DNA of 38,184 nucleotides from an uncultured Dehalococcoidales bacterium (GCA_964597725.1 CAZQZA010000001.1:1-38184), one strand, 5' to 3'; counted from the first letter of the stretch, positions 489 to 35,081 are shown. Program-made: numbers and translations. The notes: generated by a model from the sequence alone, not told the origin.

Positions 489-523
489 TTATCCTTTGCC
501 CCGGCTAGAGCAGTCAATGCTAT

Positions 524-2096: not shown

Positions 2097-2162
2097 TCTG
2101 CAACCTCCTTTGTTAAATCTAAACAGGCGCGGGCCAGCCCGCGCTTTAACTCAGTACAAACC

Positions 2163-2795: not shown

Positions 2796-2883
2796 TTCAC
2801 CTCCTTTCTTGGATAGTCATAAGATATACTCCGAGCACCTTGCCGTTCCAAAAAGATATGTACACCCTCGACTTTGCCGAGGT

Positions 2884-4200: not shown

Positions 4201-4696
4201 ACTGCCTCCCGGTGATGGCGGTGAAGAGGTCGTGCCCAAATTTTGCCAATCCCTGAAGCAATATCAGCAAAGCCCCTAGGGGAATCATCAGCTTAACCGG
4301 GTAGAGGGGGGCACGGAAGGGAGTATTACAGGGTTCTAATCGTATCAAGGATTCCCAGGCATAACCAATCCCCCACCATAGCAGCACGCCACAGAAAGCA
4401 AGGAAAAGCGGAGTCCCGACCACGTCTAAAATCGCTCGTGTTCTGAGAGAGAAGCGGTTGTAGATTACGTCCATATTAATATGCGACTTATGGAGCAGGA
4501 CGTAGGCGCCACCAATGAAGTAGTAGGCAGCGAAGATGCGTTGAGTTGTTCCGTGAGCCCATATAGTCGGGGCATCAAATAGATACCTTAGAAAAATCTC
4601 ATATACCAACACCACCACACCCGGCCACAGCAGGTAAGCGAAAAGCTTTCCCGACCATTCACTGATGCCATCAATAAACTTGAGCAAGCGTCTCAT
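4190..4696 (-). CDS. TRAP transporter small permease (DctQ family)
   Basis: 168-aa protein with about four transmembrane segments, lying between the SBP and DctM genes. Size and position are typical of DctQ. Confidence 0.75.
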   Translation of the reverse strand: MRRLLKFIDGISEWSGKLFAYLLWPGVVVLVYEIFLRYLFDAPTIWAHGTTQRIFAAYYFIGGAYVLLHKSHINMDVIYNRFSLRTRAILDVVGTPLFLAFCGVLLWWGIGYAWESLIRLEPCNTPFRAPLYPVKLMIPLGALLILLQGLAKFGHDLFTAITGRQYEY

Positions 4697-4721
4697 CGTG
4701 TCCTCTATTATGCTTTATCAG

Positions 4722-4754
4722 GGTAGAGGTAGAGGCAATGCCTCTACCTCTACC
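4722..4754 (-). promoter_or_regulatory. Intercistronic stem-loop between the TRAP SBP and permease genes
   Basis: Near-perfect 33-nt palindrome: ggtagaggtagaggca-a-tgcctctacctctacc (16-nt arms). It lies in the 100-nt gap between the SBP stop (4797) and the DctQ start (4696). No U-tract follows it. Confidence 0.55.
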
Positions 4755-4796
4755 AGTCGCCAGACTACTGAACTTTGCTGATGGTTGTGAGCTAGA

Positions 4797-5933: not shown

Positions 5934-6001
5934 CTCCTCCTCCTTTTTTTGAAAACTTTTAGCTGCTTTTGGGTTAGGCTTCACATTTTTGGTTCACCCC
6001 C

Positions 6002-6013
6002 TTCTAATTAGAA
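6002..6013. promoter_or_regulatory. Perfect 12-bp palindrome TTCTAATTAGAA in the 5' leader of the TRAP operon
   Basis: Self-complementary 12-mer about 70 nt upstream of the SBP start, overlapping a second inverted repeat GAATG-N4-CATTC. It is a candidate operator; no function has been demonstrated. Confidence 0.3.
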
Positions 6014-6064
6014 TGTGACCATTCTTCATGTTAATATTCTTATAATAAGCATGGCACACGATAT

Positions 6065-6115
6065 TCATATGCGATATACTTAGCGCATGGTAACACTTTT
6101 AATAATATTTGTCAA
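6065..6115 (-). promoter_or_regulatory. Putative promoter of the TRAP/corrinoid/MttB operon plus the conserved 14-nt motif
   Basis: Read on the minus strand: TTGACA (6115-6110), 17-nt spacer, TACCAT (6092-6087), 8 nt, TATATCGCATATGA (6078-6065). This is the same architecture as at 33692-33742. Confidence 0.45.
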
Positions 6116-6136
6116 TACCTTGTAGAGTACAGAGTA

Positions 6137-6165
6137 TTGACGGATAGGTTAGAAATGTTTATGCT
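6137..6165 (+). promoter_or_regulatory. Putative promoter of the MarR gene
   Basis: TTGACG (6137-6142), 17-nt spacer, TATGCT (6160-6165), 45 nt upstream of the ATG at 6211. The inverted repeat CTCAT-gt-ATGAG (6163-6174) overlaps the -10 box and the likely transcription start. Confidence 0.4.
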
Positions 6166-6210
6166 CATGTATGAGTCTTGCCTGCTGGTATCAATGGAGG
6201 TGTGTGAGCA

Positions 6211-6702
6211 ATGTACGAAGAACGGGATAATCATTTGGTAGCTGACCGAGATTTTGTCCTCTGGGCCTTAATAAGACAAACGCAGTGGGTGATCTTGAGA
6301 GTAAGGGAAGCAGAACTGGCTCAATATGATCTTACCCCTGAGCAGGCTGCCGTTTGTCTCTTTACCCATCTAGCTGGTAATAACCCCACTCCCAGTGAAT
6401 TGTCGCGGTGGTTGGTTCGTGAGCCCCACACCGTATCCGGAATGCTGAGCAGAATGGAAAAAAAAGGCCTGGTGAGAAAGGTCAAGGACCTGGACCGAAA
6501 GAACCAGATAAGAGTTGTGTTGACGGAAAAAGGACAGCGGGCCTTTGAGCAGGCAACTAAAAGAGAGTGCATCCATCAGATATTCTCGTGCTTGACTGAT
6601 GAAGACCGCAAACAACTGAAGTCACTCTTGGGTAAACTACGGGACACGACGCTGGAGGAGTTTGGCATGTTTAAAAAACCGCCATATCCTCCGCTGGAGT
6701 AA
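6211..6702 (+). CDS. MarR-family transcriptional regulator
   Basis: 163 aa. The winged-HTH core TPSELSRWLVREPHTVSGMLSRMEKKGLVRKVKDLDRKNQIRVVLTEKG is typical of MarR. The gene is divergent from the TRAP operon. Confidence 0.85.
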   Translation: MYEERDNHLVADRDFVLWALIRQTQWVILRVREAELAQYDLTPEQAAVCLFTHLAGNNPTPSELSRWLVREPHTVSGMLSRMEKKGLVRKVKDLDRKNQIRVVLTEKGQRAFEQATKRECIHQIFSCLTDEDRKQLKSLLGKLRDTTLEEFGMFKKPPYPPLE

Positions 6703-6891: not shown

Positions 6892-7092
6892 ATGCTTGAG
6901 GTTTATCAGGAATTAGTCAATGTAATGCAAAAAGGGGAGCGGGCAGTATTAGCCACTGTCATCTCCAGTCGTGGCTCGGCGCCACGGAAAGCCGGAGTAA
7001 AGATGCTCGTCAGGAAAGACAGCACTTTTGTGGGTACCAGAGGTGGTGGGAGTGTGGAGCAGCAGGTTCAAGGGAGGAGATTTGGCTGGTAA
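6892..7092 (+). pseudogene. XdhC/CoxI-family N-terminal domain only (truncated XdhC-like Mo-enzyme maturation factor)
   Basis: 66 aa from the ATG at 6892 (RBS GGGAGG). AVLATVISSRGSAPRKAGVKMLV...GTRGGGSVE matches the XdhC_CoxI N-domain. The ORF stops after this domain, and only about 100 nt remain before the next gene, so the C-terminal Rossmann-like domain is missing. Confidence 0.5.
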
Positions 7093-9741: not shown

Positions 9742-10956
9742 TTAGTAGGCAATCTGTTCCTGTATAAGTTTATCTATCTCCTCCTTTGGTATGCCGAGGA
9801 GTTTTCCAAAAACATAATAGTTGTGTTCGCCAAGCATCGGGGCTGGCCGGCGCACCTTTCCCGGCGTCTCGCTCAACTTACAGACCACATTGGGTATCCA
9901 ATCCACCGCAGTAACCGGATGCTCCACCTCCACCAGGACCTTCCGCTTCTGGAAATGGGGGTCAAAGAACCGTTCTTCAGTATCCTCACAGACAACCGCG
10001 GCTACCCCAGCTCTCTGAAGGAGCTTCATGACTTCACCCGGTGTCTTGGTCATGGTCCATTCGGTGGTCAACCTGTCCAACTCCTTGTGGTGGAGAAGTC
10101 TCCTGTATCCGTCAGCGAATTCTTCCCTCTCCACCCACGGGGGGCTACCTATCGCCTTGCAAAAGGCTTGCCATTCCTCCTCCGTCTGAATGGCGATGGA
10201 CACCCATTTATCGTCACCCTGACACCGGTAGTTATTGTGGGGAGCCATAATGTTACTGCGGTTCCCTATGGTACCTAGTACATGTCCTGCCATACTGTAT
10301 TCCATCACTGGCTCCGGCATGGTGCTGAGCAACGCTTCAACCTGAGCCACTTCTATGTGCTGCCCCTTGCCAGTTGCCTCACGTTGAAAAAGGGCGACCA
10401 GCATACTGAACGCGCCGTGGAGAGCTGCATTAATATCGGCATAGGCTTGCTGCATTCCAAGGACACGCTCACCCTCATAGCCGATCAGGCTATCCAAGCC
10501 AGCCAAGCCGGCTAAAGAGGGGCCATAGCTCACTAAGTCAGACAGCGGCCCCTCCTTCCCCACACCAGGGAAGGAGACCATAATAATGTCATGCTTAACC
10601 TTTACCAATTCATCGTAGTCTATGCCCAGCCTTTTGGTTACTGCGGGTGAGAAATTCTCCACCACGATATCACTAACCCTGACCAAGCTCTTGAATATCT
10701 CCAGGGCTTGGGGATGGGTCAAATCAAGGGTGATACCCAATTTGTTGCGGTTTATGCTGTGGAAAAGAGGGTCCATCTCGGGGTCCCTGGTGCGGTTATC
10801 CGGCCCGAAACGCACCGGGTCAAGGCGCTTTTGTGTCTCCAGCTTGATAACCTCAGCGCCCATATCGGCCAGAAGACAGGTGCTGCGCGGCGCCGCGGCT
10901 GCCCAGCCCAAGTCTATTATCCTGTAACCTTTAAGAATTTGCTTGCGAGTTGACAT
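9742..10956 (-). CDS. Family-III CoA-transferase-fold protein (CaiB/BaiF family), paralog 2
   Basis: I chose the start MSTRK at 10956 (GAGGA 8 nt upstream). The N-terminus YRIIDLGWAAAAPRSTCLLADMGAEVIKLE is typical of the family. The position of the catalytic Asp reads S-Y-G. The track ORF extends to 11082, into the upstream gene. Confidence 0.8.
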   Translation of the reverse strand: MSTRKQILKGYRIIDLGWAAAAPRSTCLLADMGAEVIKLETQKRLDPVRFGPDNRTRDPEMDPLFHSINRNKLGITLDLTHPQALEIFKSLVRVSDIVVENFSPAVTKRLGIDYDELVKVKHDIIMVSFPGVGKEGPLSDLVSYGPSLAGLAGLDSLIGYEGERVLGMQQAYADINAALHGAFSMLVALFQREATGKGQHIEVAQVEALLSTMPEPVMEYSMAGHVLGTIGNRSNIMAPHNNYRCQGDDKWVSIAIQTEEEWQAFCKAIGSPPWVEREEFADGYRRLLHHKELDRLTTEWTMTKTPGEVMKLLQRAGVAAVVCEDTEERFFDPHFQKRKVLVEVEHPVTAVDWIPNVVCKLSETPGKVRRPAPMLGEHNYYVFGKLLGIPKEEIDKLIQEQIAY

Positions 10957-10967
10957 TTTACGCATCC

Positions 10968-12188
10968 TCATATGATGTGCATTCTCCGCATCTGGGTCAG
11001 ATCCTCCGCCGAATAGCCAAGCGTACCATAGATTTCCTCGTTGTGTTCGGCAAGAGATGGAGCCCTGCGGCTGGAGCTCCATGTCCCGTATGACATCCTG
11101 AAGGGCGGTCCTGGAGCTTTAAATGCCTGGCCATTACAGTCTATTTCTACAAAATATCTCCGGTAATTTAGGTGCTCGTCATTTACTACCTCATCCATTT
11201 TTCTTACCGGTAGAAAGGCGATGTGCTTCTCACGACAACGAGCCATTATCTCAGCTCTGGTGTGGGACATAAGCCACGGCGCAAGCAGGTTGTCCAGGAC
11301 TTCAGGGTATTCCATTCCCACCTTCAAACGATCCTTAAACCTTTCATCTGAGGAATACCATTCTGGAATCTCGCCGTTGCCAATTATCTCCAAGAACCGC
11401 TTCCATTCCGAGCCACGCAGGGCAATCATGGATAAGTATCCATCCTTGCAGGGCAAGATGGTGTAGGGGTAGGGACCGGGAGTCCGGTGTCCTTTGCGCG
11501 TCCTCTTTCGCCCGGCATAGATAAAGGCGGAGACAGCGTTAGCGGTGTGGAAGATAGCCCATGACTCCGCCTCTGAGATATCCAGATGCTGTCCCTTATT
11601 AGTCTTCTTCCGGGCCATCAGGGCGAGCATAACGGCATTGGCTGTTATGATACCGGTCTGGAAGTGCCCCAGTGAAAAGGGAGGAGCGAGCGGCTCCCTG
11701 TCCGGTTCACCAATTATAAGGCTCATCCCCCCGATAGCACTGGCATTGATGGCATAGGCTTTATAGTCCCGGTAGGGGCCATTCTGACCGAATGGTGTAA
11801 TGGAGGCGACAATAAGGTGGGGGTTTTCTCTGCTCAGGTCTCTGAAGGTGACCTTCAGGCGCCTGGCTATCAGAGGCATCATATCCTCAATGAATATGTC
11901 GGCGCCTTCAAGCAGTTTGAGCAGTGTTTCCCGCCCGGTAGCCGTTCTGACGTTCAGGGTAACCGCCTTCTTAGCTCGGTTTAAATAGATGAACAGTCCA
12001 CTACAATCCGGGTCCGAGTGGTCATCGAGGAAGGGACCACACCTACGAGCAACATCGCCTACCCCAGGCTCCTCTATTTTTATGACCTCGGCACCGAGAC
12101 CGGTGAGTAGTGACCCGCAGTAAGGGCCTGAGATATAACCAGCCATCTCTATAACCTTAATCCCCGCCAGAGGCTTCCTCTCTTCCAT
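10968..12188 (-). CDS. Family-III CoA-transferase-fold protein (CaiB/BaiF family), paralog 1
   Basis: 406 aa with an AAGGAG RBS. IKVIEMAGYISGPYCGSLLTGLGAEVIKIEEPGVGD is typical of the family. The position of the catalytic Asp reads A-Y-A. Confidence 0.8.
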   Translation of the reverse strand: MEERKPLAGIKVIEMAGYISGPYCGSLLTGLGAEVIKIEEPGVGDVARRCGPFLDDHSDPDCSGLFIYLNRAKKAVTLNVRTATGRETLLKLLEGADIFIEDMMPLIARRLKVTFRDLSRENPHLIVASITPFGQNGPYRDYKAYAINASAIGGMSLIIGEPDREPLAPPFSLGHFQTGIITANAVMLALMARKKTNKGQHLDISEAESWAIFHTANAVSAFIYAGRKRTRKGHRTPGPYPYTILPCKDGYLSMIALRGSEWKRFLEIIGNGEIPEWYSSDERFKDRLKVGMEYPEVLDNLLAPWLMSHTRAEIMARCREKHIAFLPVRKMDEVVNDEHLNYRRYFVEIDCNGQAFKAPGPPFRMSYGTWSSSRRAPSLAEHNEEIYGTLGYSAEDLTQMRRMHII

Positions 12189-13772: not shown

Positions 13773-13819
13773 ATTTGCGATATCTTCTTCCGCCCAAGGT
13801 TGCCTATTTACCACCAGCC

Positions 13820-23008: not shown

Positions 23009-23905
23009 TCACAGCTTTCCCCTTGATTTCAGGATTTGCTCGAGTTCCTTTATCACAATATCTATCCTGTCCCACTCATCGATAGGTGAACGTCGCCGTA
23101 GATTCTCCAACAACTCAAAATTTAGAGATGCTGAGACAATTCCCTCTTCTGGACCACCCTCAGCGTAAATCTGGGACATCTTCCACCCCCTGCCAGCGAT
23201 AGTGCTGTGCCCATAGAAGGATTTTGTCCTTTCTTTCCCGGTTAAATTAGCACTGGCGGTATAGACTATATTCTCCGTCCCCCGGGCGCAGGTCTGGTGG
23301 ACAATAAAGTCATCCTTACCCGCTCCAGCAGGACTGGCAGCAGCGTTAAGGATGATTCTAGCTCCCTTCAGCATGAGCACTCTTGACAGCATGGGAAATG
23401 TCCAAAAATCATAGCATATCTGGACGCCGATGGTTCCCAAGTTGGTCTCAAAAACGGGAAGGCTGTCTCCAGGCGTGAAACATTGTGTCTCGGTTAGTGG
23501 TAATGCCATAAGGTGAATTTTACGATAGGCTCCAAGTATCCCTTCGGGGCCGATAACCGCTGCCGAAATATGCCTTATTTCCGGGTTCTCCGGGTTTTTC
23601 TCTGGCATCCCAAAAACCACATATATCCCTGTTTCCTTAGCAGTCTTGGCAATCTCCTCAGTGGAAGGACCAGGGATGGTCTCTGCCAGCTCACGGTGCA
23701 TGTAACAGCCGCCTTCGGCGATATCCTCACTGCACTCATAGCCACTGAGGGCTAGTTCAGGGAAAAGCACTATGTCATTGCCCTGCTCAGCCGCTTGCTC
23801 AGTAAATCTCTTTATTTTTTTGAGATTGGCTTCCTTATCTCCCCATACCGTGGCAAAATTAACACAAGCTATGGAGACAACCTTTGGGTGTTCTTTTTGG
23901 GCCAA
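23009..23905 (-). CDS. Carbon-nitrogen hydrolase (nitrilase superfamily; amidase/N-carbamoylase-like)
   Basis: 298 aa with a TTG start and a GGAGGGA RBS. The Glu-Lys-Cys triad contexts are FPELALSGY, YRKIHL and VQICYDFWTFP. Confidence 0.85.
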   Translation of the reverse strand: MAQKEHPKVVSIACVNFATVWGDKEANLKKIKRFTEQAAEQGNDIVLFPELALSGYECSEDIAEGGCYMHRELAETIPGPSTEEIAKTAKETGIYVVFGMPEKNPENPEIRHISAAVIGPEGILGAYRKIHLMALPLTETQCFTPGDSLPVFETNLGTIGVQICYDFWTFPMLSRVLMLKGARIILNAAASPAGAGKDDFIVHQTCARGTENIVYTASANLTGKERTKSFYGHSTIAGRGWKMSQIYAEGGPEEGIVSASLNFELLENLRRRSPIDEWDRIDIVIKELEQILKSRGKL

Positions 23906-23923
23906 TTTAACTCCCTCCTATGA

Positions 23924-24685
23924 TTATTTACCGGTAAACTCAGGTACTCTCTTCTTTTTAAAAGCAGCTATTCCCACCTTATGGTCCGCTGTCTCTCGGC
24001 ATATAGTTTGGGCCTGGTATTCGAGCGCTAGCACCGTAGCAATATCCGAATTCTGTGTAACGTTCAGAATCCTTTTTATCATCGCCATTGGCTTCGGCGC
24101 CCCTTTTGCCAGCCGCTTGGAATATTCCTTAACGAAATCTTGAAATTCCTCATCGGGGACCACTTTGTTCACCATCCCTATTCTCTCTGCTTCCACTGCC
24201 GATATTCGGTCTCCGGTAAGCATAAGCTCTTTTGCCTTGTAGATTCCCACTAACCTGGGCAAAAAATACATTCCTCCCCAGTCCGGAACAAGCCCTATTT
24301 TGACAAAGCTCTGAATAAAACTCGCCTTCTCCGAAGCAATAACAATATCTGCGGCCATTGCCAGGTTGCAGCCAGCACCAGCGGCGACACCATTAACCGC
24401 AGATATTACCGGTTTCTCCAGATTCATAATCTTAAGGACTATTGGATGAGACTTTATCATTCTTTCAGACTTGCCCATACTTCTCATATCACCACCAGAG
24501 CAAAAGGCTCTTCCCTTTCCAGTGATGGTTAGCACTCTGATATCAGCATCCGCCTCTATATCATCCAAAGCAGCTAGAAGCTCCCGCCTCATTGTATTGT
24601 CTATGGCATTAAGTACATCGGGCCTGTTTAGATATAGGGTAGCAACCTTTTTTTCTTTTTCTAAAATTACGGTTTCAAATGGCAT
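23924..24685 (-). CDS. Enoyl-CoA hydratase/isomerase-family protein
   Basis: 253 aa. VATLYLNRPDVLNA, FCSGGD and AAGAGCNLAMAADI are canonical crotonase segments. Confidence 0.85.
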   Translation of the reverse strand: MPFETVILEKEKKVATLYLNRPDVLNAIDNTMRRELLAALDDIEADADIRVLTITGKGRAFCSGGDMRSMGKSERMIKSHPIVLKIMNLEKPVISAVNGVAAGAGCNLAMAADIVIASEKASFIQSFVKIGLVPDWGGMYFLPRLVGIYKAKELMLTGDRISAVEAERIGMVNKVVPDEEFQDFVKEYSKRLAKGAPKPMAMIKRILNVTQNSDIATVLALEYQAQTICRETADHKVGIAAFKKKRVPEFTGK

Positions 24686-24724
24686 CGAAAAGCCTCACCT
24701 CCCTCCGCTTTATTTTTGACGGTG

Positions 24725-26113
24725 TTATCTTTTTATATACTTTCCAAAGCCTTCCTTATTGAGAACTTTGCCATTTTCCATAATCACCTCTCCCCTGAGG
24801 ACGGTTAACACCGGCCAGCCCTTTAGCGTCCATCCGTCCCAGAGAGAGAAGTCAGACAAGCCCTGAAGCATCTCCGGGTTCACCTTTTTCTCCAGGTCAA
24901 GGTCAACGATAGCGAAATCGGCATCACTACCAATCTCTATTGTTCCTTTCTTAGGATAAAGGCCAAATATCTTGGCTGTATTATAGGAAGCCAGTTCAGC
25001 CACCTCCTCCAGAGATAGGCGTCCTTTGTTTACCCCTTCGCTCAAAAGGAGTGGTAGCAATAAGGCAACCCCGGGGAAACCAGGAACAGCGCTCCAGATA
25101 TCCTTTTTCTGTTCTTTCAAGAGGTGACAGTGGTCTGTACCTACTGTATCTATATCCCCATCGACTATCCCTTGCCAGAGGAAATCAATGTCCTCCTGAG
25201 TCCTCAATGGTGGGTTCACCTTGCCAAAAGGACCAATCGGAGAATCTTTGGTCTGAGTTAAATAATGAGTGCAGGTCTCAGCGTAAATCTCTACCGGACT
25301 TCGCTCTCTATGAAGCATTATCTCTCTTAGAGCAGCTTCACAGGTAACATGAACAATATAGGCTGGACAGTTAGTAATCTCAGCAAGATACAAAATACGA
25401 CGAACACTTTCGGCTTCACAAAAGTCTGGCCTACCGTCAGTCCAGGCGGCAAGGTCCTGCCTGCCCTGTGCCTTTAACGGCGCAGTCAGCATGGTGAGAA
25501 GCTCCATACTTTCACAATGTACCATAACAATTACCCCGGGATACTGACTTAACTCAGCAAAAGTTCGATATAAGAACGCATCGTCAACATCGTTTGTTAT
25601 CCCCAGGGCTTTACCCTCAGCACCTTTGTAAGCCATGGAATACTTGAAGGATTTAACTCCGTACTCCTCGATATATTTTTTATACTCCTTTGGCTCTGCT
25701 TGAGAGTTGGTGGATATCATGAGATGCACACCGAAATCAACGTGTGATCGCTCTTCGGCTTTGCCCATAATTTCCCAAAAGTCCTCATAGGGTGATGGCT
25801 GCTGTCCGTACTGACGATAGAAGTGAATGTTAGTGGTTACACCTCCGACTGCCGCTGAAGTTGTTTCCGTGCCGAAGGCCTCATAAAATGAACCATAAGG
25901 AGCCCCAGGATATCCAGGGTGGCTATGGGGGTCAATAATTCCGGGCAGGACATACTTTCCACTTATATCTACTTCCTTCTTGGCGGATACCTCTTCGGAA
26001 GGAGACAGGATTGCTACCACCTTTTCGCCCCTTATTCCTATGTTTCCTTCGATAATTCCGCGCTGAGGGATAACTAACTTCCCATTCTTGATAAGCAAAT
26101 CAAATTGGCTCAT
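24725..26113 (-). CDS. Cyclic amidohydrolase of the dihydropyrimidinase/hydantoinase type
   Basis: 462 aa with an AAGGAGG RBS. The metal-site motifs appear intact: IDPHSH, SFKYSMAYK (the carboxylated-Lys context), VMVHCES, YIVHVTC and GTDHC. Confidence 0.85.
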   Translation of the reverse strand: MSQFDLLIKNGKLVIPQRGIIEGNIGIRGEKVVAILSPSEEVSAKKEVDISGKYVLPGIIDPHSHPGYPGAPYGSFYEAFGTETTSAAVGGVTTNIHFYRQYGQQPSPYEDFWEIMGKAEERSHVDFGVHLMISTNSQAEPKEYKKYIEEYGVKSFKYSMAYKGAEGKALGITNDVDDAFLYRTFAELSQYPGVIVMVHCESMELLTMLTAPLKAQGRQDLAAWTDGRPDFCEAESVRRILYLAEITNCPAYIVHVTCEAALREIMLHRERSPVEIYAETCTHYLTQTKDSPIGPFGKVNPPLRTQEDIDFLWQGIVDGDIDTVGTDHCHLLKEQKKDIWSAVPGFPGVALLLPLLLSEGVNKGRLSLEEVAELASYNTAKIFGLYPKKGTIEIGSDADFAIVDLDLEKKVNPEMLQGLSDFSLWDGWTLKGWPVLTVLRGEVIMENGKVLNKEGFGKYIKR

Positions 26114-26138
26114 AAGTTAATTCCTCCTTAATATAATA

Positions 26139-28265
26139 TTATTTGTTACGCTTCAAACATAGCGCATCAAGCACTTTTGCTCCTTGGCCATCTTCAAAGA
26201 CCACTACCGGGTTCAAATCGAGCTCTGAAACTGACTCGCCCCAGTCTGAAGCTAAGTTTGATACCTTCAATAGCAGGTCAATGATAGCCATGATATCAGC
26301 CTTAGGTTTACCTCGAACACCGGCTAGCACCTGATACCCTTTAATTTCTCGTACCATCTCTTCAGCATCTCGACGTGTTATTGGCAATAGACGCATAGAA
26401 ACGTCCTTCAGAATCTCGACAAGAATTCCCCCAAGACCAAACATGAGTACCAGCCCAAATTGGGGGTCTCGAGAAACACCGATGATGACTTCAACACCTT
26501 CTTTAGCCATCTCTTGAACCAGAACCCCCTCAATCTTGGCTTTTGGTGCATAGTTTTGACAGTTAGCCAGTATCTCGGAGTAAGCCTTAATTAAGGCAGA
26601 CTTACTGGTCAGATTTAGCCTGATGCCGCCGGCTTCACTCTTGTGAGTAATCTGTGGGGAGTTAACCTTGAGCGCTACCGGATAACCTATCTTCTCAGCA
26701 ATTTGTGCCGCCTGGGTAGCGGAGGTTGCTACCTCTTCCCTTGTAATCGGGATTCCGTACAAAGCAAGGAGCAACTTCGCTTCGTGTTCGGTCATGGTTT
26801 GTTCGGATGTGCTGAAAATGGTCTCAGCTTTACGGCAGTCAATTGATACTGGAAGTGCCTCTTTGTCCCTAACCAGGAATCTCTCTCTCATCTGTGAGTA
26901 GGTAACCGCTGACTTCACTGCTTTGATGCACCGTTCAGGTGACTTGAATAGGGTTACCTTGCTTTCGTCGAGCAATCCAAACGCTGATTCCGATAGATTC
27001 CCTGCTGCCCACCAGCTGACGAATGGTTTATCAACTGTCTTTGCAGCGTCAATGATGTAAGTTGCTCTTGCCCTGGCTCGCTCCCCCGGTACCATAGATA
27101 TGGCTACAGCGACGACATCAATGTTTTCATCTTGTGAAAAAAGCTGGATTACACCCTTAAACATTTCCGGCTGGCTGTATAGTTGGCCGGTCAGGTCCAT
27201 CGGATTTCCTACGGTAGCGAACGATTCGACCTTTTGGGATAATTGTTCCCGGGTAAATTGAGACAGAGCGGGTAGACTTAGTCCGTTTTTGACAATCTTG
27301 TCGGCGAGGATGATAGCTCCTCCTCCAGTACCAGTGAGAATGCCCACCCGATTCCCCTTGGGTAGTTTGCTTTTTGAAAACAGCATAGCTGTCTCAATCA
27401 GGTCATCGTACTCCTCAACCCTGATTACTCCATATTGCTTGAATACCGCTGAATAGACAGCATCAGACCCAGTTAGGGAACCAGTATGGGTAGCGGCTAC
27501 CCTTTTCCCACCTTCAGTCTCCCCTACCTTTAGTAGAACAATCGGCTTTCCCAGCTCTAAGGCTCGCTTTGCCACTTTGGCAAACTTTCTGGTATCTCTG
27601 ATACCTTCTACGTATGCCATAATGACCTGCGTGTTGGGGTCGTCTACCAGGAATGCCATAAAATCGGTGAGGTCTAAATCTGCCTCATTGCCGGTCGAGA
27701 TGAAGTAGCTGAACCCGATGTTCCTGCTCTGAGCCCGATTGACAATGGACCCCCCCAAGGCACCACTCTCGGAAACAAAACCTATGTTCCCGGGTACCAA
27801 TCGGTCTGCTTCCAGGAATCCACTGAACGACATGGCGGTATCCTCAGCAAAATTAACGATGCCAATGCAGTTAGGCCCGCAAACTTTCATTTCACCTTGT
27901 TTTATTATTTGGCGAAGCTCTTCCTGTTTACATTTTCCTTCCTCGCCGGTTTCGGCAAAACCAGCGCTATAGATAATAGCTGTCTTTATCCCCCGCTGGG
28001 CGCATTCTCTGAGAGAGTCAGGGACTAGCTTTGCCGCCAGGGCTATTAGAGCTGTATCTATTCTTTCGGGCAGATTTCGGACATTAGGGTAGCACTGAAT
28101 TCCAGCGATTTCCTCATATTTCGGGTTAACCGGATAGATTTTTCCCCGGTACCCGAATTTGAGGAGATACTTAAGCAACATCCCCCCAATTCGGCCAAAA
28201 TCATCTGAGGCTCCGACAACAGCAATCGACTTTGGAGCAAGCAATGCGTTTAAGGTTTCGTTCAT
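26139..28265 (-). CDS. NDP(ADP)-forming acyl-CoA synthetase, fused alpha plus ATP-grasp beta domains
   Basis: 708 aa. It has a CoA-binding N-terminus (SIAVVGAS...YPVNPK), a phosphohistidine motif THTGSLTGS, and a C-terminal ATP-grasp (EHEAKLLLALYGIPI...GYPVALKV). Confidence 0.85.
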   Translation of the reverse strand: MNETLNALLAPKSIAVVGASDDFGRIGGMLLKYLLKFGYRGKIYPVNPKYEEIAGIQCYPNVRNLPERIDTALIALAAKLVPDSLRECAQRGIKTAIIYSAGFAETGEEGKCKQEELRQIIKQGEMKVCGPNCIGIVNFAEDTAMSFSGFLEADRLVPGNIGFVSESGALGGSIVNRAQSRNIGFSYFISTGNEADLDLTDFMAFLVDDPNTQVIMAYVEGIRDTRKFAKVAKRALELGKPIVLLKVGETEGGKRVAATHTGSLTGSDAVYSAVFKQYGVIRVEEYDDLIETAMLFSKSKLPKGNRVGILTGTGGGAIILADKIVKNGLSLPALSQFTREQLSQKVESFATVGNPMDLTGQLYSQPEMFKGVIQLFSQDENIDVVAVAISMVPGERARARATYIIDAAKTVDKPFVSWWAAGNLSESAFGLLDESKVTLFKSPERCIKAVKSAVTYSQMRERFLVRDKEALPVSIDCRKAETIFSTSEQTMTEHEAKLLLALYGIPITREEVATSATQAAQIAEKIGYPVALKVNSPQITHKSEAGGIRLNLTSKSALIKAYSEILANCQNYAPKAKIEGVLVQEMAKEGVEVIIGVSRDPQFGLVLMFGLGGILVEILKDVSMRLLPITRRDAEEMVREIKGYQVLAGVRGKPKADIMAIIDLLLKVSNLASDWGESVSELDLNPVVVFEDGQGAKVLDALCLKRNK

Positions 28266-28296
28266 TATCTATCTTCCTAGTGCCCAGAAAGGGTTC

Positions 28297-29862
28297 TTAA
28301 AGCGGAATATTGCCATGCTTTTTAGGGTATTTAAGCTCTGTCTTTCTTCCCATCATGTTCAACGCTTTGATTAGCATGGGGCGAGTGTCCCTGGGGTCGA
28401 TAATCTCTTCGATTCGCATCAGACCAGCAGCATGATAGGGCTGCTTTCCCCATTGGCTACGGTATTCCTCTAACCTTTTCTTCTTCAACTCTTCAGGATT
28501 CTCGGCAGCGGCTATCTCTTTCCCATAAAGAATGTTCACCGCCCCCGAACCACCCATCAGTGCTACCTCAGCAGTGGGCCAGGCAAGTGCCAGGTCACAG
28601 CCCATAGGCTCATAGCACATCGCCGCACTGGCTCCTCCATATGATTTTCTAATATAGACGGTTATCTTGGGTACTGTCGACTCGGCTATTGCATACAGAA
28701 CCTTGGCTCCGTGCCGTATAATTCCTTGATGCTCCTGTTCCTTCCCCGGCAAGTAAGCTGGTGTGTCAACCATGAATATCAGCGGAATGCTAAAGGCATC
28801 GCAGAATCGAATAAAGCGCGCCTCTTTGTCGGAACTATTGATATCCAATGCCCCTGCCAGGTACAGGGGATTGTTAGCCACTATCCCCACCGCATTTCCA
28901 CCAAGCCGGGCAAAACCAACAATTATGTTCTTAGCGTACTCAGCCTTAATCTCGAAGAAATCGCCGTTGTCCACAACCCGGCTGATAACCTTGTGCATGT
29001 CAAAAGGCTTCGCCGGATTCGTAGGTACAATATCCAGAAGGTCTTCTTCCCTGCGGTTAACATCATCTCCAGTGTCTTGGTAAGGAGGCTTTTCGGTGCA
29101 ATTCTGGGGCAGAAAACCTAGCAGTTTCCTTGTCTTTCTCAGGCAGTCCTCGTCGTTATCGGTCAGTAAATCACAACAGCCGCTCACCGTGGCATGAATT
29201 TTAGCTCCGCCAAGTTCTTGGTCAGTAATATCCTCTGAAGTGGCAGATTTTAGCAGTGTAGGAGAAGCAATGTACATATAACTGGTATCCTTGACCATAA
29301 AAAGCATGTCATGCAGCATGGGCGAATAGGAAGCACCAGCAGCACAGGGGCCCATCATCAGGGCAATCTGTGGGATAACGCCGGAAGAGTTAGTGTGATA
29401 ATAAAACATAGTGGCGTAACTATCGTTGGGATCAGCAGTGACATAATCCTGGACTCTTACACCACCTGAATCTATCATGCCAATTACCGGCACCTGCATC
29501 TTAAGTGCTCTTTTTAGGAGCCTGATGATTTTTTTGGCGTGAGTTGAGCCTAGTGTCCCGGCCAGTACGGTGAAATCCTGGGCATAGATGCAGACTGGTC
29601 GTCTATCTATTTCGCCGTACCCGGTAATTACTCCATCCCCTGGGAATTCACGTTGGTCAATATCGAAGCCAGTTTTCCGGGATAATGCCCACAGGTCAAA
29701 TTCGACAAATGAGCCTGTGTCCAGGAGCTTACCAATCCTCTCTCGGGCGGTTAACTTACCTTGAGCGTGTTGCTTCTCAATTGCCGGTAAGCCCCCACCC
29801 TGTGTCAAACGCGCTCGCTTCTTTTCTAGCTCTTCAAGCCGACTACGCATGTCATCTTCCAT
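28297..29862 (-). CDS. Acyl-CoA carboxyltransferase subunit (GcdA / MmdA / PccB family)
   Basis: About 521 aa from the ATG at 29862 (RBS GGAGGGG; the track starts at a TTG at 29874). RIGKLLDTGSFVEF...GDGVITGYG and the two-domain length are typical of the carboxyltransferase family. Confidence 0.85.
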   Translation of the reverse strand: MEDDMRSRLEELEKKRARLTQGGGLPAIEKQHAQGKLTARERIGKLLDTGSFVEFDLWALSRKTGFDIDQREFPGDGVITGYGEIDRRPVCIYAQDFTVLAGTLGSTHAKKIIRLLKRALKMQVPVIGMIDSGGVRVQDYVTADPNDSYATMFYYHTNSSGVIPQIALMMGPCAAGASYSPMLHDMLFMVKDTSYMYIASPTLLKSATSEDITDQELGGAKIHATVSGCCDLLTDNDEDCLRKTRKLLGFLPQNCTEKPPYQDTGDDVNRREEDLLDIVPTNPAKPFDMHKVISRVVDNGDFFEIKAEYAKNIIVGFARLGGNAVGIVANNPLYLAGALDINSSDKEARFIRFCDAFSIPLIFMVDTPAYLPGKEQEHQGIIRHGAKVLYAIAESTVPKITVYIRKSYGGASAAMCYEPMGCDLALAWPTAEVALMGGSGAVNILYGKEIAAAENPEELKKKRLEEYRSQWGKQPYHAAGLMRIEEIIDPRDTRPMLIKALNMMGRKTELKYPKKHGNIPL

Positions 29863-29924
29863 TTTCCCCTCCAAAAAACTCTCCTGCTGACCTGTTCCTA
29901 GACCGCTGAGTTCCGATTAGTAGA

Positions 29925-30422
29925 TTAGACAGCACTTAGATTTTTGCCTGTCTGAATCGATTCAGCAGCTTTCTTGATGGCATCGACTATCTTCACATAG
30001 CCGGTGCAACGGCAGAGGTTGCCTCCTATTGCCCGTTTAATCTCCTCCTCGGTAGGGTTAGGGTTCTCATCCAGTAAGGCCTTGGCTGACATTATCATCC
30101 CTGGAGTACAATAACCGCACTGGATAGCTCCATACTGGATAAAGGCTTCTTGAACAGGGTGTAACTGTCCTTTGTTAGCTAAGCCCTCAATGGTCAGCAC
30201 TTCCCTGTCATCGGCCTCCACGGCTAGTACAAGACAAGAGTTAACCGTTTTTCCGTCCATGATGATGGTGCATGCCCCACAATCGCCACGGTTGCACCCT
30301 TTCTTGGCTCCGGTTAGACTGAGTTTGTCACGCAGAACATCCAGCAGTGATTCGCGTGGCTCCACAGCAACTGTGTAAGACTCCCCGTTCACAGTTAGCC
30401 TAATATTATGCTTCACCTTCAC
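29925..30422 (-). CDS. [2Fe-2S]-binding small subunit of the Mo hydroxylase (set 2)
   Basis: 165 aa. It contains GCNRGDCGACTI, QCGYCTPGM and LCRCTGY. Confidence 0.9.
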   Translation of the reverse strand: MKVKHNIRLTVNGESYTVAVEPRESLLDVLRDKLSLTGAKKGCNRGDCGACTIIMDGKTVNSCLVLAVEADDREVLTIEGLANKGQLHPVQEAFIQYGAIQCGYCTPGMIMSAKALLDENPNPTEEEIKRAIGGNLCRCTGYVKIVDAIKKAAESIQTGKNLSAV

Positions 30423-31299
30423 TCCCTCCAGACTTTAGCTTCTCCAGTGCCTGGACGATACTCTGGTTTACCAGTACTTCGATGATTTGCTTCCTATACC
30501 ATAAGGAAGCTCTGACATCGGTTATCGGGGCTGCTTCCTCAGAGGCCACCTTAGCTGCTTCCTTGATAAAGAAATCACTTATCTTGTTTCCCCTGAGTAC
30601 TGCTTCTGCTCTCTTTGCTCTAAGCGGCGTTGGCGCAACTGCTCCCAGCACCATTCTGATATCTGTGCAGTTAGCAAGAGCTGAGTCCATAGTTAATGTG
30701 GAAGCAACACCCACTAGGGCTAGGTCCGTAGCTTTGCGTCGGCTGAATTTCAAATAGATTCCCTCCGAATGAGCTCTCATGTTGGGCACCCTTACTTCTT
30801 TTAAAATCTGGCCTTTACCCAGAACGGTCTCACCTGGGCCGGTAAAGAACTCTTCCAGTGGCAACAGACTCTCACCATCCGGTCCAGCCAGTGTTACTGA
30901 TGCACCTAGGCCAAGCAAGGAGGGCGCCATATCGGCAGAGGGTGCAGCATTGCATAGATTTCCCCCCACGGTTGCTTTATTGCGTACCTGTACTGAGCCT
31001 AATGTCCCCGCCGCCTGGCTCAGTATGCTGAACTTCTCCTGTATAAGCTTGGATTTCTCGATGTCACATATATTGACCAGTGCCCCTATTCTAAGCCCTT
31101 CAGCCTCACTATAATCAATACCACTCAAATCGGTAATGTGTTTTAGGTCAATGAGCACTGCTGGCTGCAACACCCGGTCCCGCATCTTCACCAGCAAGTC
31201 CGTGCCTCCGGCTAATATTGCGGCTTTCCCATCATGCTGAACAAGCAAGCTAACCGCTTCTTCTAGCTTTTCTGGTACCACATATTCAAAGCTTTTCAT
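30406..31299 (-). CDS. FAD-binding medium subunit of the Mo hydroxylase (set 2)
   Basis: 297 aa with the ILAGGTDLLVKMR motif. It has no Cys-rich insertion. Its start overlaps the large-subunit stop by 4 nt. Confidence 0.85.
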   Translation of the reverse strand: MKSFEYVVPEKLEEAVSLLVQHDGKAAILAGGTDLLVKMRDRVLQPAVLIDLKHITDLSGIDYSEAEGLRIGALVNICDIEKSKLIQEKFSILSQAAGTLGSVQVRNKATVGGNLCNAAPSADMAPSLLGLGASVTLAGPDGESLLPLEEFFTGPGETVLGKGQILKEVRVPNMRAHSEGIYLKFSRRKATDLALVGVASTLTMDSALANCTDIRMVLGAVAPTPLRAKRAEAVLRGNKISDFFIKEAAKVASEEAAPITDVRASLWYRKQIIEVLVNQSIVQALEKLKSGGSEGEA

Positions 31300-33617
31300 C
31301 TATTCTCTCCCCTTTCTTTAAGCGCTTTTAGTATCTTTTCAGAGGTTATGGGGAGTTCTGTGAACCTGATTCCGATGGCATCATAGATAGCATTAGCCAC
31401 AGCAGGTGCTGTAGGAATCAGGACAGCTTCACCAATACCTTTGGCGCCAAAGGGGCCGTTTGGCTCGTTAGATTCGACAATGATTGAGGATATTGGCGGG
31501 ATGTCCATTGCGGTTAGAATGGTATAGTCAGTAAGGTTTGGATTCATAATCTTCCCATCAGGCTGCAACTTCACTTCCTCGATGAGTGCTAAGCCTATTC
31601 CTTGGACCACTCCGCCCTCGATCTGTCCCTCGCAGCACATGGGATTGATAGCCTTACCTGCATCATGAGCGGCAATAAATCTAAGAATATTTACCTTACC
31701 CGTTTCTCGGTCGACCTCGACTTCAACTACTTGGGCGGCAAAGGCAAGGCATGGAACAGGCAAGGCATACCAGGTGATTGGGTCAAAATCCTTTGTTTGA
31801 GGAGGTTCATTAAAGTAGCCAACCCCCACAATAGGCGCATTCTTTTTGAGATAACTGCTGGCAGCTACCTGTGCCAAGTCTATTGAGGAACTTGGGCTCT
31901 TCTTTACTAAAACCTTCCCGTCTCTCAACTCTAGCTCGCTAATATCAGCATCAAGCATTCCTGAGGCGAGTCCCAGTATCTTGGACCTCGCATCCTTTGC
32001 TGCTCTCAAAACAGCATTCCCGGCACACAGGGTAACTCGGGAGCCGTAAGTGCCTGCACAGGGAGGAGTTATACTAGTATCTGTTCCCACCAATCTTATC
32101 TGGTCAATGGAGACCCCAAGGGCTTCGGCAGCAATTTGAGACAATATAGTATCAGAGCCCTGCCCGATATCAGATGCTCCCATAGCCAGTGTAAATGCCC
32201 CGCTCCAATCTAAGGTAATTGAAGCTCCGGAGTAGTTGACCCCGCTTCCCATACTGGCGCCACCGGTGTAAATCATGCAGGCCATCCCCACACCGCGGGA
32301 GCTATGTTTACTTGTTTCCTTCCTAGTTTTCTCCCATTGGATTGCCTCCGAAGACTTCTCAATGCATTCCTTGAGTCCACAACTTGTTATCCGCATCAAA
32401 TTAGCTGTCATGTCTCCGGTCTGGTTGGCGTTCTTTAACCTCAACTCCTTGGGGTCCATTCTCAATTCACTGGCAATCTTGTCTATCATGCTCTCGTGGG
32501 CAAAGGTAACCTGAACATCTCCAAAACCGCGCATGGCGCCGCCATAGTTTTTATTGGTGTAGACCAGACGGCCATCAAACTTGACATTGGGAAAGCGGTA
32601 CAAAGCGCAGAACCAGGTACAGGCATAGGAGAGAACGGCAGGGCCATAACTGTTATAAGCGCCGTTATCCATCACCACATAGGCCTCTTTTGCCAGTAGC
32701 GTACCGTCTTTCTTTGCCCCCATCTTGACCTTGATGATGAAGGGGTGTCGGCACCTTGTGCCGTAAAATTCATCTTGTCTAGAAAGGGATATCTTGACTG
32801 GTCTGCCCGTCGCCTGTGCTAGGAAGACAGTTATGGGTTCAACAGTCTCCATTTTACAGGACCTACCAAACCCACCGCCCATGTATGGCTTGATTACCCG
32901 GATATTCTTTAGGGGCAGGTTACAAGCGTGTGATATCCTTTGCCTCATGTCGTGAGGTACCTGCGTGGTGGACCACAGGGTAAGCCGCCCTGATGAGTCG
33001 AAGGTGGCTATAGTAGTCTGGGTCTCCAAACAGGTATGGGCTTGAGTTTGGGTGGTGAAACGTTCCTCAAGAATGTAATCACTTTCGGCAAAGCCTTTTT
33101 GGACATCCCCGATTTCAATGAATGCATGTCTGGCAATATTACTTTCCAGGTGCTCGTGGATTCTAGGGGCATCTGGTTGTATTGCTTTCTCTGGATCGAA
33201 GACTGTAGGAAGAGGCTCGTAATCAACCTTGATTAACTCTAGTGCTTCCTCGGCAGTATCTTCGTCTATGGCAGCCACCGCTGCCACTTCATCTCCAACG
33301 AAGCGGATTTTTCCCGCTGCTAGGGGCAGCTTATCGGCTAATTGAGGAATGACACTGAATTTGATTTTTGGTGTATCGTCAGCGGTAATAACGGCTTTGA
33401 CACCAGGCAACCTTCTAGCGCGAGTTACATCAATATTGGTAATTCGAGCATGAGGTAGCGGGCTTCTCAAAATCTTGCCAACCAGCATGCCCGGCAATCG
33501 CATATCCGTAGTATAAATAGCTGCTCCCGTGACCTTTTCTCTGGCATCCACTCGAGCCACCCTCTCACCGACTACAGAGCCTGAGCCATTAAACTCAGTG
33601 GCAACAGCATTATCCAT
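31296..33617 (-). CDS. Xanthine dehydrogenase/aldehyde oxidase-family molybdopterin-binding large subunit (set 2)
   Basis: 773 aa with an AAGGAGG RBS. It contains KVTGAAIYTTDM, YMGGGFGR, and a C-terminal PFGAKGIGEAVL. Confidence 0.9.
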   Translation of the reverse strand: MDNAVATEFNGSGSVVGERVARVDAREKVTGAAIYTTDMRLPGMLVGKILRSPLPHARITNIDVTRARRLPGVKAVITADDTPKIKFSVIPQLADKLPLAAGKIRFVGDEVAAVAAIDEDTAEEALELIKVDYEPLPTVFDPEKAIQPDAPRIHEHLESNIARHAFIEIGDVQKGFAESDYILEERFTTQTQAHTCLETQTTIATFDSSGRLTLWSTTQVPHDMRQRISHACNLPLKNIRVIKPYMGGGFGRSCKMETVEPITVFLAQATGRPVKISLSRQDEFYGTRCRHPFIIKVKMGAKKDGTLLAKEAYVVMDNGAYNSYGPAVLSYACTWFCALYRFPNVKFDGRLVYTNKNYGGAMRGFGDVQVTFAHESMIDKIASELRMDPKELRLKNANQTGDMTANLMRITSCGLKECIEKSSEAIQWEKTRKETSKHSSRGVGMACMIYTGGASMGSGVNYSGASITLDWSGAFTLAMGASDIGQGSDTILSQIAAEALGVSIDQIRLVGTDTSITPPCAGTYGSRVTLCAGNAVLRAAKDARSKILGLASGMLDADISELELRDGKVLVKKSPSSSIDLAQVAASSYLKKNAPIVGVGYFNEPPQTKDFDPITWYALPVPCLAFAAQVVEVEVDRETGKVNILRFIAAHDAGKAINPMCCEGQIEGGVVQGIGLALIEEVKLQPDGKIMNPNLTDYTILTAMDIPPISSIIVESNEPNGPFGAKGIGEAVLIPTAPAVANAIYDAIGIRFTELPITSEKILKALKERGENR

Positions 33618-33691
33618 GATGCCTGCCTCCTTCTTGATTAGGATTTCACTCGCTGACTGATACCTCTCAGGACAAACATCTCACAAGACCA

Positions 33692-33742
33692 TCATATACG
33701 ATATATTTCTCATAAGATAACATCATCAGTGATATATGTCAA
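33692..33742 (-). promoter_or_regulatory. Putative promoter of the Mo-hydroxylase (set 2) operon plus the conserved 14-nt motif
   Basis: Read on the minus strand: TTGACA (33742-33737), 17-nt spacer, TATCTT (33719-33714), 8 nt, TATATCGTATATGA (33705-33692), about 75 nt upstream of the ATG at 33617. Confidence 0.45.
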
Positions 33743-33857
33743 TGCCTTTACCAAGGTTGTGTTAAAAAATTTAAAAGTGAACTATAGAGGATACATTCCT
33801 CCGCTAAGGAGGGATGTATAGAGCAGCTAGATAAGCATTTCACTTGAAGGATAGCAG

Positions 33858-34238
33858 TTACTGAGGAAGTGGCCTATCCATCCCTTCGTGGTCATAGCCA
33901 CACTGTGTCGTTCTGGGTAGCATGTGAAAGAGAGGTTCTTTCTCCACCGAGTCGATTTGAATAGCACAGGGGGCCATACTCACAATGAAGCCGAGTAGCG
34001 CCATACTCCAAGTGCTGTCATTGACAGTACGCTGGCTCAAGGCCTGATAAAAGTGAAAAGGAAGCTCCCTTCCTAATGTAACCAAGATGCCAAGCAAGTA
34101 TATGAATGCCCCTGCCGAAATCCAGAGATAAGAGCCAAACCCCGGAGTTTGAAGAAAGTCGGCAAGGAGCATACCCGAAAATCCAGCCACAAGTCCCAGC
34201 AAGACATAGGCAAATAGACGGAAAAAGGAGAATATCAA
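33858..34238 (-). CDS. Hypothetical membrane protein, possibly a truncated DsbD_2/TauE-like fragment
   Basis: 126-aa ORF with about 3 hydrophobic segments. FAYVLLGLVAGFSG and a later ...APC... weakly resemble DsbD_2-type transmembrane proteins. The N-terminal Cys motif and the C-terminal half are absent. Confidence 0.3.
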   Translation of the reverse strand: MIFSFFRLFAYVLLGLVAGFSGMLLADFLQTPGFGSYLWISAGAFIYLLGILVTLGRELPFHFYQALSQRTVNDSTWSMALLGFIVSMAPCAIQIDSVEKEPLFHMLPRTTQCGYDHEGMDRPLPQ

Positions 34239-34450: not shown

Positions 34451-34708
34451 CTATTGTTTCGCATGAGTCTTTGTGAGGGATTGGAGAAAACTGACCTGTC
34501 TCATATTGTGCAGCAGTGTGGGACTATCACCACCGGTATCGAACAAAATAGACTTTTGGAGAAGCCTCGTCAGATAAGAGAAACCCCAAGCTGCGCGTAG
34601 TCGATTATCAAGCTCATTATTATCATAGGCAATAATGAGCTCATCTGACCTTGATTCAGGTACTGATTGAGGAGGGAATATAGTAGGCGCTTTTACCAAG
34701 AGAACCAC
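34451..34708 (-). pseudogene. N-terminal fragment of an MBL-fold (metallo-beta-lactamase-like) protein
   Basis: LIIAYDNN...LRAAWGFSYL......SILFDTGGDSPTLLHNMRQ resembles the first ~55 residues of MBL-fold hydrolases. The ORF ends before the HxHxDH motif. Confidence 0.4.
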
Positions 34709-35081
34709 TTTCCACAGCGAACAGGATAACCTTCACTTCGTCATTTAGTTTACTATTCAAAGTAACCCCAAAGATCACCTCAGCTATTGTATCCACTCTT
34801 TTCTTAATCGTATCCACTGCGTCATTAACTTCTTTGAGAAGTAGGTCTGATGGTCCGGTTATATTAAATAGTACCTTTGTCGCTACCTTAAGCACCGATG
34901 CATCAATCAGGGAATTACTGAGAGCAGCCTGACAGGCATCAATAGCTTTATCTTTACCAGTACCACTGCCGGTAGAAATCAAGACTGGACCCTTCTGGTG
35001 CATAATAGTTCTAATATCGCTATAACTGATATCGATCTCACCGGTGGTTTGTATAAGCTCAGTGATACCTTGTATGGTATT
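34656..35081 (-). pseudogene. FtsZ-like C-terminal-half fragment (no GTP-binding N-domain)
   Basis: The frame is open from 35081, directly after a TAG. NTIQGITELIQTTGEIDISYSDIRTIMHQKGPVLISTGSGTGKDKA...VLFNITGPSDLLLKEVNDAVDTIKKRVDTIAEVIFGVTLNSKLNDEVKVILFAVESG aligns by eye with FtsZ from the T7-loop region to the end of the C-domain. The tubulin-signature GGGTGTG region is absent. Confidence 0.6.

Follow-up and report, generated by a model that had tools for sequence, protein, structure and literature searches.

Duplicated promoter modules carrying a predicted MarR-family operator precede two operons of an uncultured Dehalococcoidales bacterium

MarR-family repressors act at palindromic operators that lie over the -10 box and transcription start (+1) of a divergent operon, as E. 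coli MarR does at marO, and the family includes regulators of hydroxycinnamate and aromatic-acid metabolism. Krasper and colleagues are said to have described, in 2016, two regulators of Dehalococcoides mccartyi rdh genes, RdhR and Rdh2R (as cited in PMC12961961 and PMC7755780). For ModE, the E. coli site is ATCGNTATATA-N6-TATATANCGAT (PMC545781), and the Methanosarcina acetivorans site, RTTATGT-N8-RCATAAY, has been shown by electrophoretic mobility shift assay (PMC12327845). Here we analyze a 38,184-nt stretch of metagenomic DNA from an uncultured Dehalococcoidales bacterium (GCA_964597725.1 CAZQZA010000001.1:1-38184; hereafter, the window), in which two promoter regions 27.6 kb apart, sites A and B, head two functionally different operons, one encoding a molybdenum (Mo)-hydroxylase and coenzyme A (CoA) enzymes and the other encoding tripartite ATP-independent periplasmic (TRAP) uptake, a corrinoid protein and an MttB-family methyltransferase. 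A first-pass annotation had proposed that the two promoters are homologous, share a 14-nt motif and answer to a common regulator, and had named two candidates encoded in the window, a ModE-like protein (102-488) and a MarR-family protein (6211-6702). We consider it likely, judging from sequence comparison, that A and B are operators of the adjacent MarR repressor (6211-6702) on duplicated modules and that they form one local regulon.

Both sites are read on the minus strand. Site A is a promoter-operator-leader module (33606-33790) before the first Mo-hydroxylase operon that carries, by promoter scan and direct reading, a -35 hexamer TTGACA (33737-33742), a 17-nt spacer, a TG-extended -10 element (TGT TATCTT, 33714-33722, with the hexamer at 33719-33714) and, 8 nt past the -10 box, the 14-mer TATATCGTATATGA (33692-33705). 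The homologous module at site B (5975-6160), between the MarR gene and the TRAP/corrinoid/MttB operon, carries TTGACA (6110-6115), a 17-nt spacer, a TG-extended -10 element (TGT TACCAT, 6087-6095, hexamer at 6092-6087) and the 14-mer TATATCGCATATGA (6065-6078), likewise 8 nt past the -10 box. A consensus scan predicts sigma-70-type promoters at both sites, TTGACA-17-TATCTT at A and TTGACA-17-TACCAT at B, each with 10/12 matches and a TG extension, and the hexamer before the -35 box is AAGGCA at site A and AAGGTA at site B. Reading of the sequence upholds the first-pass description of identical -35 hexamers, equal spacers (10/17 identical), TAnnnT -10 boxes, 14-mers identical at 13/14 positions and a TGTG 6 nt further downstream in both, and the exact pattern TATATCGYATATGA occurs in the window at A and B only. 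The resemblance had also been judged to exceed chance, and it does: an ungapped local alignment of the two intergenic regions covers 84 nt with 57/84 identities and a score of 30, compared with 10.2 ± 1.4 (maximum 18) in 2000 dinucleotide-preserving shuffles (z = 14), and A-B is the highest-scoring of all pairs of window intergenic regions, the runner-up scoring 16.

For comparison we gathered 80 metagenomic and 80 genomic loci encoding MarR relatives, plus contigs of individual homologues (individual loci are given below by L numbers). Judged from these alignments, A and B are homologous copies of one ~175-nt module, which a five-way alignment traces from about -60, ~20 nt before the -35 box, through the ribosome-binding site as far as the ATG. 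The homology of the promoters is borne out by a bridging locus, L012, whose MarR is 76% identical to that of the window and whose MarR-TRAP intergenic region is more diverged: in a blastn comparison of all loci gathered, site A matches this region at 74% over 119 nt (E = 1e-12), and the L012 leader is closer to site A than site B's leader is. The site B module is kept at 92-95% in L006 and L013 and at 75% in L012. The site B leader contains a vestigial ribosome-binding site, GAAGGGGGTGA, and then an ATG-TGA start-stop (5981-6004, minus strand), which align with the Mo-hydroxylase ribosome-binding site and ATG at site A; the start-stop is also present in L006, L012 and L013, making four lineages with the window, and the actual DctP start lies ~50 nt downstream. 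This mini open reading frame (ORF) is either left over from duplication of the cassette or works as a start-stop element, and its vestigial state in copy B suggests a direction of copying. Throughout the MarR-TRAP intergenic region (5934-6210) the window is 92-95% identical to L006/L013, though the MarR proteins are 78-79% identical, and the DctP signal peptide and Pro/Thr-rich linker diverge right after the ATG between the window and these two loci, so that conservation is higher in the non-coding DNA than in the coding DNA on its flanks.

Common ancestry changes how the identical 8-nt offset, which the first-pass annotation had stressed, is to be read: the offset is real in the sequence, but it results from ungapped homology and therefore provides no independent evidence of function. 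By the same reasoning, the A-B similarity could be the mere trace of a recent promoter-leader duplication, with a 14-mer that has no regulatory role. A ~175-nt homology with an indel-free core would alone account for the offset, the vestigial ribosome-binding site and ATG-TGA of the B leader are non-functional parts that were copied too, and when the window is compared with L006 or L013 the 14-mer is no more conserved than its surroundings. The module has, however, decayed (57/84 in its core), and within it the 14-mer is the best-conserved 14-nt window, with a mean identity of 0.91 between A and four B-type sequences, above the -35 region (0.80) and most 10-nt blocks (about 0.4-0.75). Moreover, the core of the palindrome described below is found at promoters without detectable flanking homology, beside MarR relatives of 40-65% identity. 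On balance, a duplication trace devoid of regulatory function appears improbable.

The 14-mer overlaps a family of 14-bp palindromes, TATCGYA-TRCGATA (the hyphen marking the axis), and the symmetric operator is offset by 2 nt from the 14-mer first noted. On the minus strand, the predicted MarR operator A, TATCGTATATGATG (33690-33703), agrees with the palindrome at 12/14 positions and the predicted operator B1, TATCGCATATGAAT (6063-6076), at 11/14, each starting 10 nt past the -10 box, while a weaker putative tandem operator B2, TATCGTGTGCCATG (6050-6063; 7.3 bits), lies 13 bp from B1 and includes the downstream TGTG. A symmetric scoring matrix built from 13 sites in other loci, window sites excluded, ranks A first (18.0 bits) and B second (14.7 bits) of ~38,000 window positions in a test that is only partly independent (discussed below), with a null expectation for such matches of 0.1 per window under a first-order Markov model. 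A weak match at 13773-13783 (ATATCGCAAAT) is unsupported by the matrix, and an operator-like TATTGCCTATGATA at 34621-34634 scores 10.3 bits and overlaps the -35 of a promoter-like TTGCCT-17-GATAAT upstream of a DsbD_2 fragment.

Beyond the window, the palindrome accompanies MarR genes. Scanning the gathered loci with TATCGYATRYGA gives many exact matches, nearly all promoter-proximal and adjoining a MarR gene, which resolve into TATCGYA-TRCGATA; the perfect form, TATCGTATGCGATA, stands upstream of the relatives in L017 and L021. Unbiased counting of 8-mers in the regions upstream of MarR relatives in 96 non-redundant Dehalococcoidia loci gives CGCATACG (11 loci, 22-fold), ATACGATA, ATCGCATA and GTATGCGA as the most enriched once TTGACA and TATAAT words are set aside. 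The palindrome TATCGYATRCGATA has 6 matches with at most one mismatch in the 33 kb made up of the 350 nt before each relative versus 1 in 710 kb of the rest of these loci (86-fold), and 13 versus 12 with at most two mismatches (22-fold). This enrichment beside MarR relatives, together with the top two ranks of A and B under a matrix from outside the window, supports the proposal of a common regulator and a single regulon. It also bears on whether the motif might be a generic Dehalococcoidia promoter-proximal element, such as a discriminator or initially transcribed sequence, that serves no specific regulator. The motif is indeed present after many TTGACA-type promoters, but the 710 kb of background spans hundreds of genes and yields just the 1 and 12 matches given above, and in the window only A and B reach at least 14.7 bits despite other promoter-like sites, so that we give a generic element almost no credence.

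The placement of the palindromes agrees with the earlier suggestion of a repressor-type operator near +1. Among sites of at least 12 bits in non-redundant loci, 29/52 lie at -13 to +30 nt past the -10 box of a promoter predicted by consensus, TTGACA (at most one mismatch)-16/18-TAnnnT. The 10-nt gap past the -10 box seen at A and B also occurs in L082, L103, L104 and L158, and the palindrome overlaps the -10 box or spacer (offset -13) in L017, L021, L064 and L091. Tandem operators 13 bp apart, with a one-base overlap, are found in L083, L109, L158, L177, L009 and at site B, a spacing that hints at two MarR dimers on different faces of the helix. Closer orthologues of the window MarR keep the core in other surroundings: in L177 (MarR 65% identical) TTGACA-17-TAATAT is followed by GTTCGTATATGAT-TATCGTATATGACT, and in L009 (MarR also 65% identical) TATCGTATGCGATT lies within the gene's own promoter. 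A parallel to a regulon of several operons is L109, in which one MarR is accompanied by three operator-bearing promoters, before ABC (ATP-binding cassette)-transporter, MarR and oxidase operons. A repressor that blocks access to the start region would be expected to have its sites in such a promoter-proximal, sometimes tandem layout. Near-identical operators accompany paralogous MarR genes in L016, L091, L100, L104, L119, L158, L051 and L109, whose neighbours vary and include long beta-helix surface proteins with C-terminal anchors, ABC-transporter binding proteins, an aldehyde:ferredoxin oxidoreductase-like enzyme and FAD (flavin adenine dinucleotide) oxidoreductases.

The same geometry can be turned toward the transcript. 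Since the motif would occupy approximately positions +2 to +15 of each predicted transcript, it could act at the RNA level at the 5' ends, by folding into a leader structure, by working like a riboswitch or by being bound by a protein or small RNA, and the 146-nt B leader is unusually well conserved (92-95%, against 79% identity of the MarR protein). Searches of Rfam, however, returned nothing, either for the window at gathering thresholds or for L006 with E allowed up to 1, and the folding energies predicted for both leaders are ordinary (z = -0.85 and -0.17). Palindromes that cover the -10 box or spacer at paralogous loci (offset -13) would, moreover, not be transcribed from that promoter. 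An RNA-level role is therefore disfavored, and we regard it as very unlikely.

The predicted binder of the palindrome is the product of the plus-strand gene at 6211-6702, which diverges from the site B operon and is the proposed repressor of both promoters. It matches the Pfam families MarR_2 (28.0 bits, cutoff 27), MarR (26.0 bits, cutoff 24.6) and HTH_27 (26.2 bits, cutoff 22.2). Its nearest solved structure is the MarR-family protein 5e1w (E = 2e-21), which we take to be D. mccartyi RdhR. Among GTDB species-representative genomes, its best relative is 52% identical, and all relatives come from Dehalococcoidia or Chloroflexota metagenome-assembled genomes. The winged helix-turn-helix region hardly differs from those of L009, L016 and L091, three loci with near-perfect palindromes. 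Of the two regulators named by the first-pass annotation, the MarR protein is favored over the ModE-like protein, in that the palindrome tracks MarR genes and the ModE-like protein has separate boxes of its own.

Several observations weigh against assigning A and B to this particular repressor. The right half-sites of both operators are degenerate, with T rather than C at position 10 in every A/B-type copy, and the consensus used to collect sites first came from A and B, which makes the matrix ranking only partly independent, whereas the 8-mer enrichment is independent. At short evolutionary distance the 14-mer does not stand out, as in L006/L013 it holds 2 of the few intergenic substitutions. 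A search with the N-terminal 250 amino acids of the Mo-hydroxylase large subunit found no diverged orthologue of site A: the best relative of this N-terminus shares 63% identity and sits in a different context, on a contig (L171) where another gene lies 88 nt upstream and the motif is missing, and contigs with an identical large-subunit protein are identical at site A too. There is therefore no independent footprint of site A. Site B lies ~60 nt upstream of the predicted MarR promoter, so that autoregulation is not evident. Finally, many MarR paralogues share the recognition helix and have no strong palindrome in the DNA examined, which leaves the specificity of the paralogues unexplained, and another paralogue could be the true binder; comparison of recognition helices was set aside as an explanation of specificity, the helix being too conserved across paralogues.

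The ModE-like protein (128 amino acids; 102-488, minus strand) is the other candidate. It comprises a DNA-binding domain only, with a sub-threshold Pfam HTH_1 match, and among PDB entries it matches 2ijl (E = 4.6e-13) and the N-domain of E. coli ModE, 1b9m (E = 4.2e-10, residues 38-126); in Pfam and PDB comparisons the ModE matches end at the N-domain, and no Mop/TOBE molybdate-binding domain is found. Three ModE-type boxes with at most two mismatches to GTTATAT-N8-ATATAAC occur in the window versus 0.10 expected, and 6 occur in ~1.7 Mb of other loci. Box C (519-540, plus strand; GCTATAT-N8-ATATAAC, or GTTATAT-N8-ATATAGC on the other strand) lies inside a perfect promoter, TTGACA-16-TATAAT, of the ModE-like gene and holds a third TATATCG heptamer; its counterparts in L013, L014 and L008 keep the arms and vary in the spacer. 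Box D (66-87, plus strand) lies downstream of the ModE-like gene and is identical in L013. The third box (33700-33721, plus strand; GATATAT-N8-AGATAAC, two mismatches) reaches across the site A -10 box into the start of the 14-mer and is absent from site B. The ModE-like protein probably has a small regulon of its own, comprising itself, the next operon and perhaps the Mo-enzyme promoter, and the box at site A suggests a second, molybdenum-related input restricted to that site.

Could the ModE-like protein instead bind the shared 14-mer, so that the two operons and the ModE-like gene would be a regulon of molybdenum status? The TATATCG heptamer of the 14-mer recurs in the two boxes that flank the ModE-like gene, the number of boxes in the window far exceeds expectation and one of them overlaps site A, the GTTATAT-N8-ATATAAC geometry agrees with published ModE sites (PMC545781, PMC12327845), and it would make biological sense for a ModE relative to govern a Mo-enzyme operon. 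However, the 22-mer homologous to the box has, at site B as well as in the orthologues of site B in L006, L012 and L013, five mismatches and no second arm, and hence no ModE box; the CG of the heptamer falls in the variable spacer of boxes C and D and is TG in L008; and the palindromes with the 14-mer core track MarR genes at loci where, in the DNA examined, there is no ModE-like gene, the best-palindrome loci among them. A protein without Mop domains would also be unable to sense molybdate alone. Given the mismatches at site B and its orthologues and the absence of the gene from the best-palindrome loci, the ModE-like protein does not explain the shared motif; we consider such a molybdenum-status regulon unlikely, and the ModE-type system is a neighbour of the A/B finding rather than its explanation. 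The third TATATCG site (525-538) was for its part rejected as a third copy of the operator, as it scores 10.3 bits and has the arms of a ModE box whose spacer varies. MarR may nonetheless bind there, the L014 counterpart lying 210 nt upstream of a MarR gene, a usual operator distance.

With the MarR protein as regulator, a mechanism can be proposed for the local regulon. Each module would combine a sigma-70-type promoter (TTGACA, 17 nt, TG-extended -10) with an imperfect 14-bp palindrome ~10 nt past the -10 box, at about +4 to +17 of the predicted transcript, and the palindrome would be the operator for a MarR-family dimer encoded at 6211-6702. Bound over the start region, this dimer would keep transcription from initiating or RNA polymerase from leaving the promoter. 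If the system works like other MarR repressors, a small molecule, most probably a substrate or intermediate of the pathway, would release it, and the TRAP-uptake/corrinoid/MttB demethylation operon and the Mo-hydroxylase/CoA operon would switch on together. At site A, the Mop-less ModE-like protein (102-488) may add a second input through its overlapping box.

The genes under the two promoters give this proposal a metabolic setting. Site B lies in the 277-nt gap (5934-6210) between the MarR gene and a minus-strand operon (648-5933) that, by Pfam, encodes TRAP DctP, DctQ and DctM, a corrinoid protein and an MttB-family methyltransferase and is followed by the ModE-like gene; the MttB protein is closest to glycine betaine methyltransferase (9yce/2qne). 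The site A operon (23009-33617, minus strand, by Pfam) encodes Mo-hydroxylase large (31296-33617), FAD and 2Fe-2S subunits, a carboxyltransferase, an ADP-forming acyl-CoA synthetase, a hydantoinase-like amidohydrolase, an enoyl-CoA hydratase and a CN hydrolase. The closest solved relative of the large subunit is the alpha subunit of 4-hydroxybenzoyl-CoA reductase (1rm6, E = 6e-154), and the amidohydrolase is closest to hydantoinases. Genes on the same strand continue to 7890 with a second Mo-hydroxylase set, CoA transferases and an old yellow enzyme (OYE)-type reductase. Taken together, the genes of 7890-33617 suggest that a heterocyclic or aromatic carboxylate with an N-methyl group is broken down anaerobically. 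From these predictions we tentatively draw a fuller picture, possible but less probable than not to hold in all its parts, of a new regulon for anaerobic catabolism in uncultured Dehalococcoidia of sediments. Uptake by TRAP and corrinoid/MttB-type N-demethylation of a methylated carboxylate would be induced along with a downstream pathway that relies on Mo enzymes similar to 4-hydroxybenzoyl-CoA reductase, on activation with CoA and on hydantoinase/carbamoylase-type ring cleavage; the Mo promoter would integrate substrate (MarR) and molybdenum/cofactor (ModE-like) signals on overlapping sites; and the regulon would have grown by copying of the whole cassette, leaving a mini-ORF in one copy.

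Some further features of these gene clusters were recorded. The minus-strand region 7890-33617 also encodes CoxG, CoA ligases and a thiolase with a DUF35-type partner, and both Mo-hydroxylase sets resemble 4-hydroxybenzoyl-CoA reductase. Two family III CoA-transferase ORFs (9742-11082 and 10968-12188, minus strand) overlap by 115 nt as listed; the L001 gene call gives the downstream CoA-transferase 409 amino acids, and its real start is therefore later than the first in-frame ATG. Gene remnants include DsbD_2 and FtsZ_C fragments just upstream of site A (33858-34238 and 34656-35003, minus strand) and a 66-amino-acid XdhC fragment after the MarR gene (6892-7092, plus strand), and these truncations suggest that the borders of the clusters have been rearranged or are island junctions.

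A text search of the open-access literature did not find TATCGYATRCGATA as a described operator, and as far as that literature shows, the operator motif and the MarR subfamily are undescribed, with a mechanism that appears conventional; what is known of the way MarR repressors work is unchanged by the A/B finding. Non-dehalogenating Dehalococcoidia are abundant in subsurface sediments, and what is known of their metabolism comes almost entirely from lists of genes. A shared operator provides independent evidence that places the MttB/corrinoid/TRAP operon and the Mo-hydroxylase/CoA cluster in one pathway, and the same approach could sort genes into pathways in metagenome-assembled genomes. The palindrome TATCGYATRCGATA offers a handle on the large, uncharacterised expansion of MarR proteins in Dehalococcoidia, for regulon prediction, the design of DNA affinity purification sequencing (DAP-seq) and heterologous reporters, and the duplicated cassette is a concrete example of a local regulon recruiting a second operon.

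Set against described systems, the locus is most like the MarR repressors typified by marO and RdhR/Rdh2R: it has a winged-helix MarR encoded divergently from the operon that it is predicted to regulate, a pseudo-palindrome of 14 bp, in some cases doubled in tandem, where transcription is predicted to start, a MarR-family protein as closest structure, and relatives that are all from Dehalococcoidia/Chloroflexota. It differs from RdhR/Rdh2R in its targets, which are TRAP/corrinoid/MttB and Mo-hydroxylase/CoA genes rather than reductive dehalogenase genes, and from known MarR systems in general in that the second predicted operator stands 27.6 kb from the regulator gene. Published ModE boxes are matched by a window protein with the ModE N-terminal DNA-binding domain and by window boxes with the same arm sequence and N8 spacing, one in the promoter of the gene itself, one shortly past its end and one over the site A -10 box; unlike ModE, the window protein has no Mop/TOBE domain, and the shared 14-mer forms no ModE box at site B. 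Relative to the growth of regulons by duplication of promoter-operator cassettes, there are here two copies only, within 38 kb, and the likeness lies in a contiguous ~175-nt module of promoter, operator and ribosome-binding site that stands before two unrelated operons.

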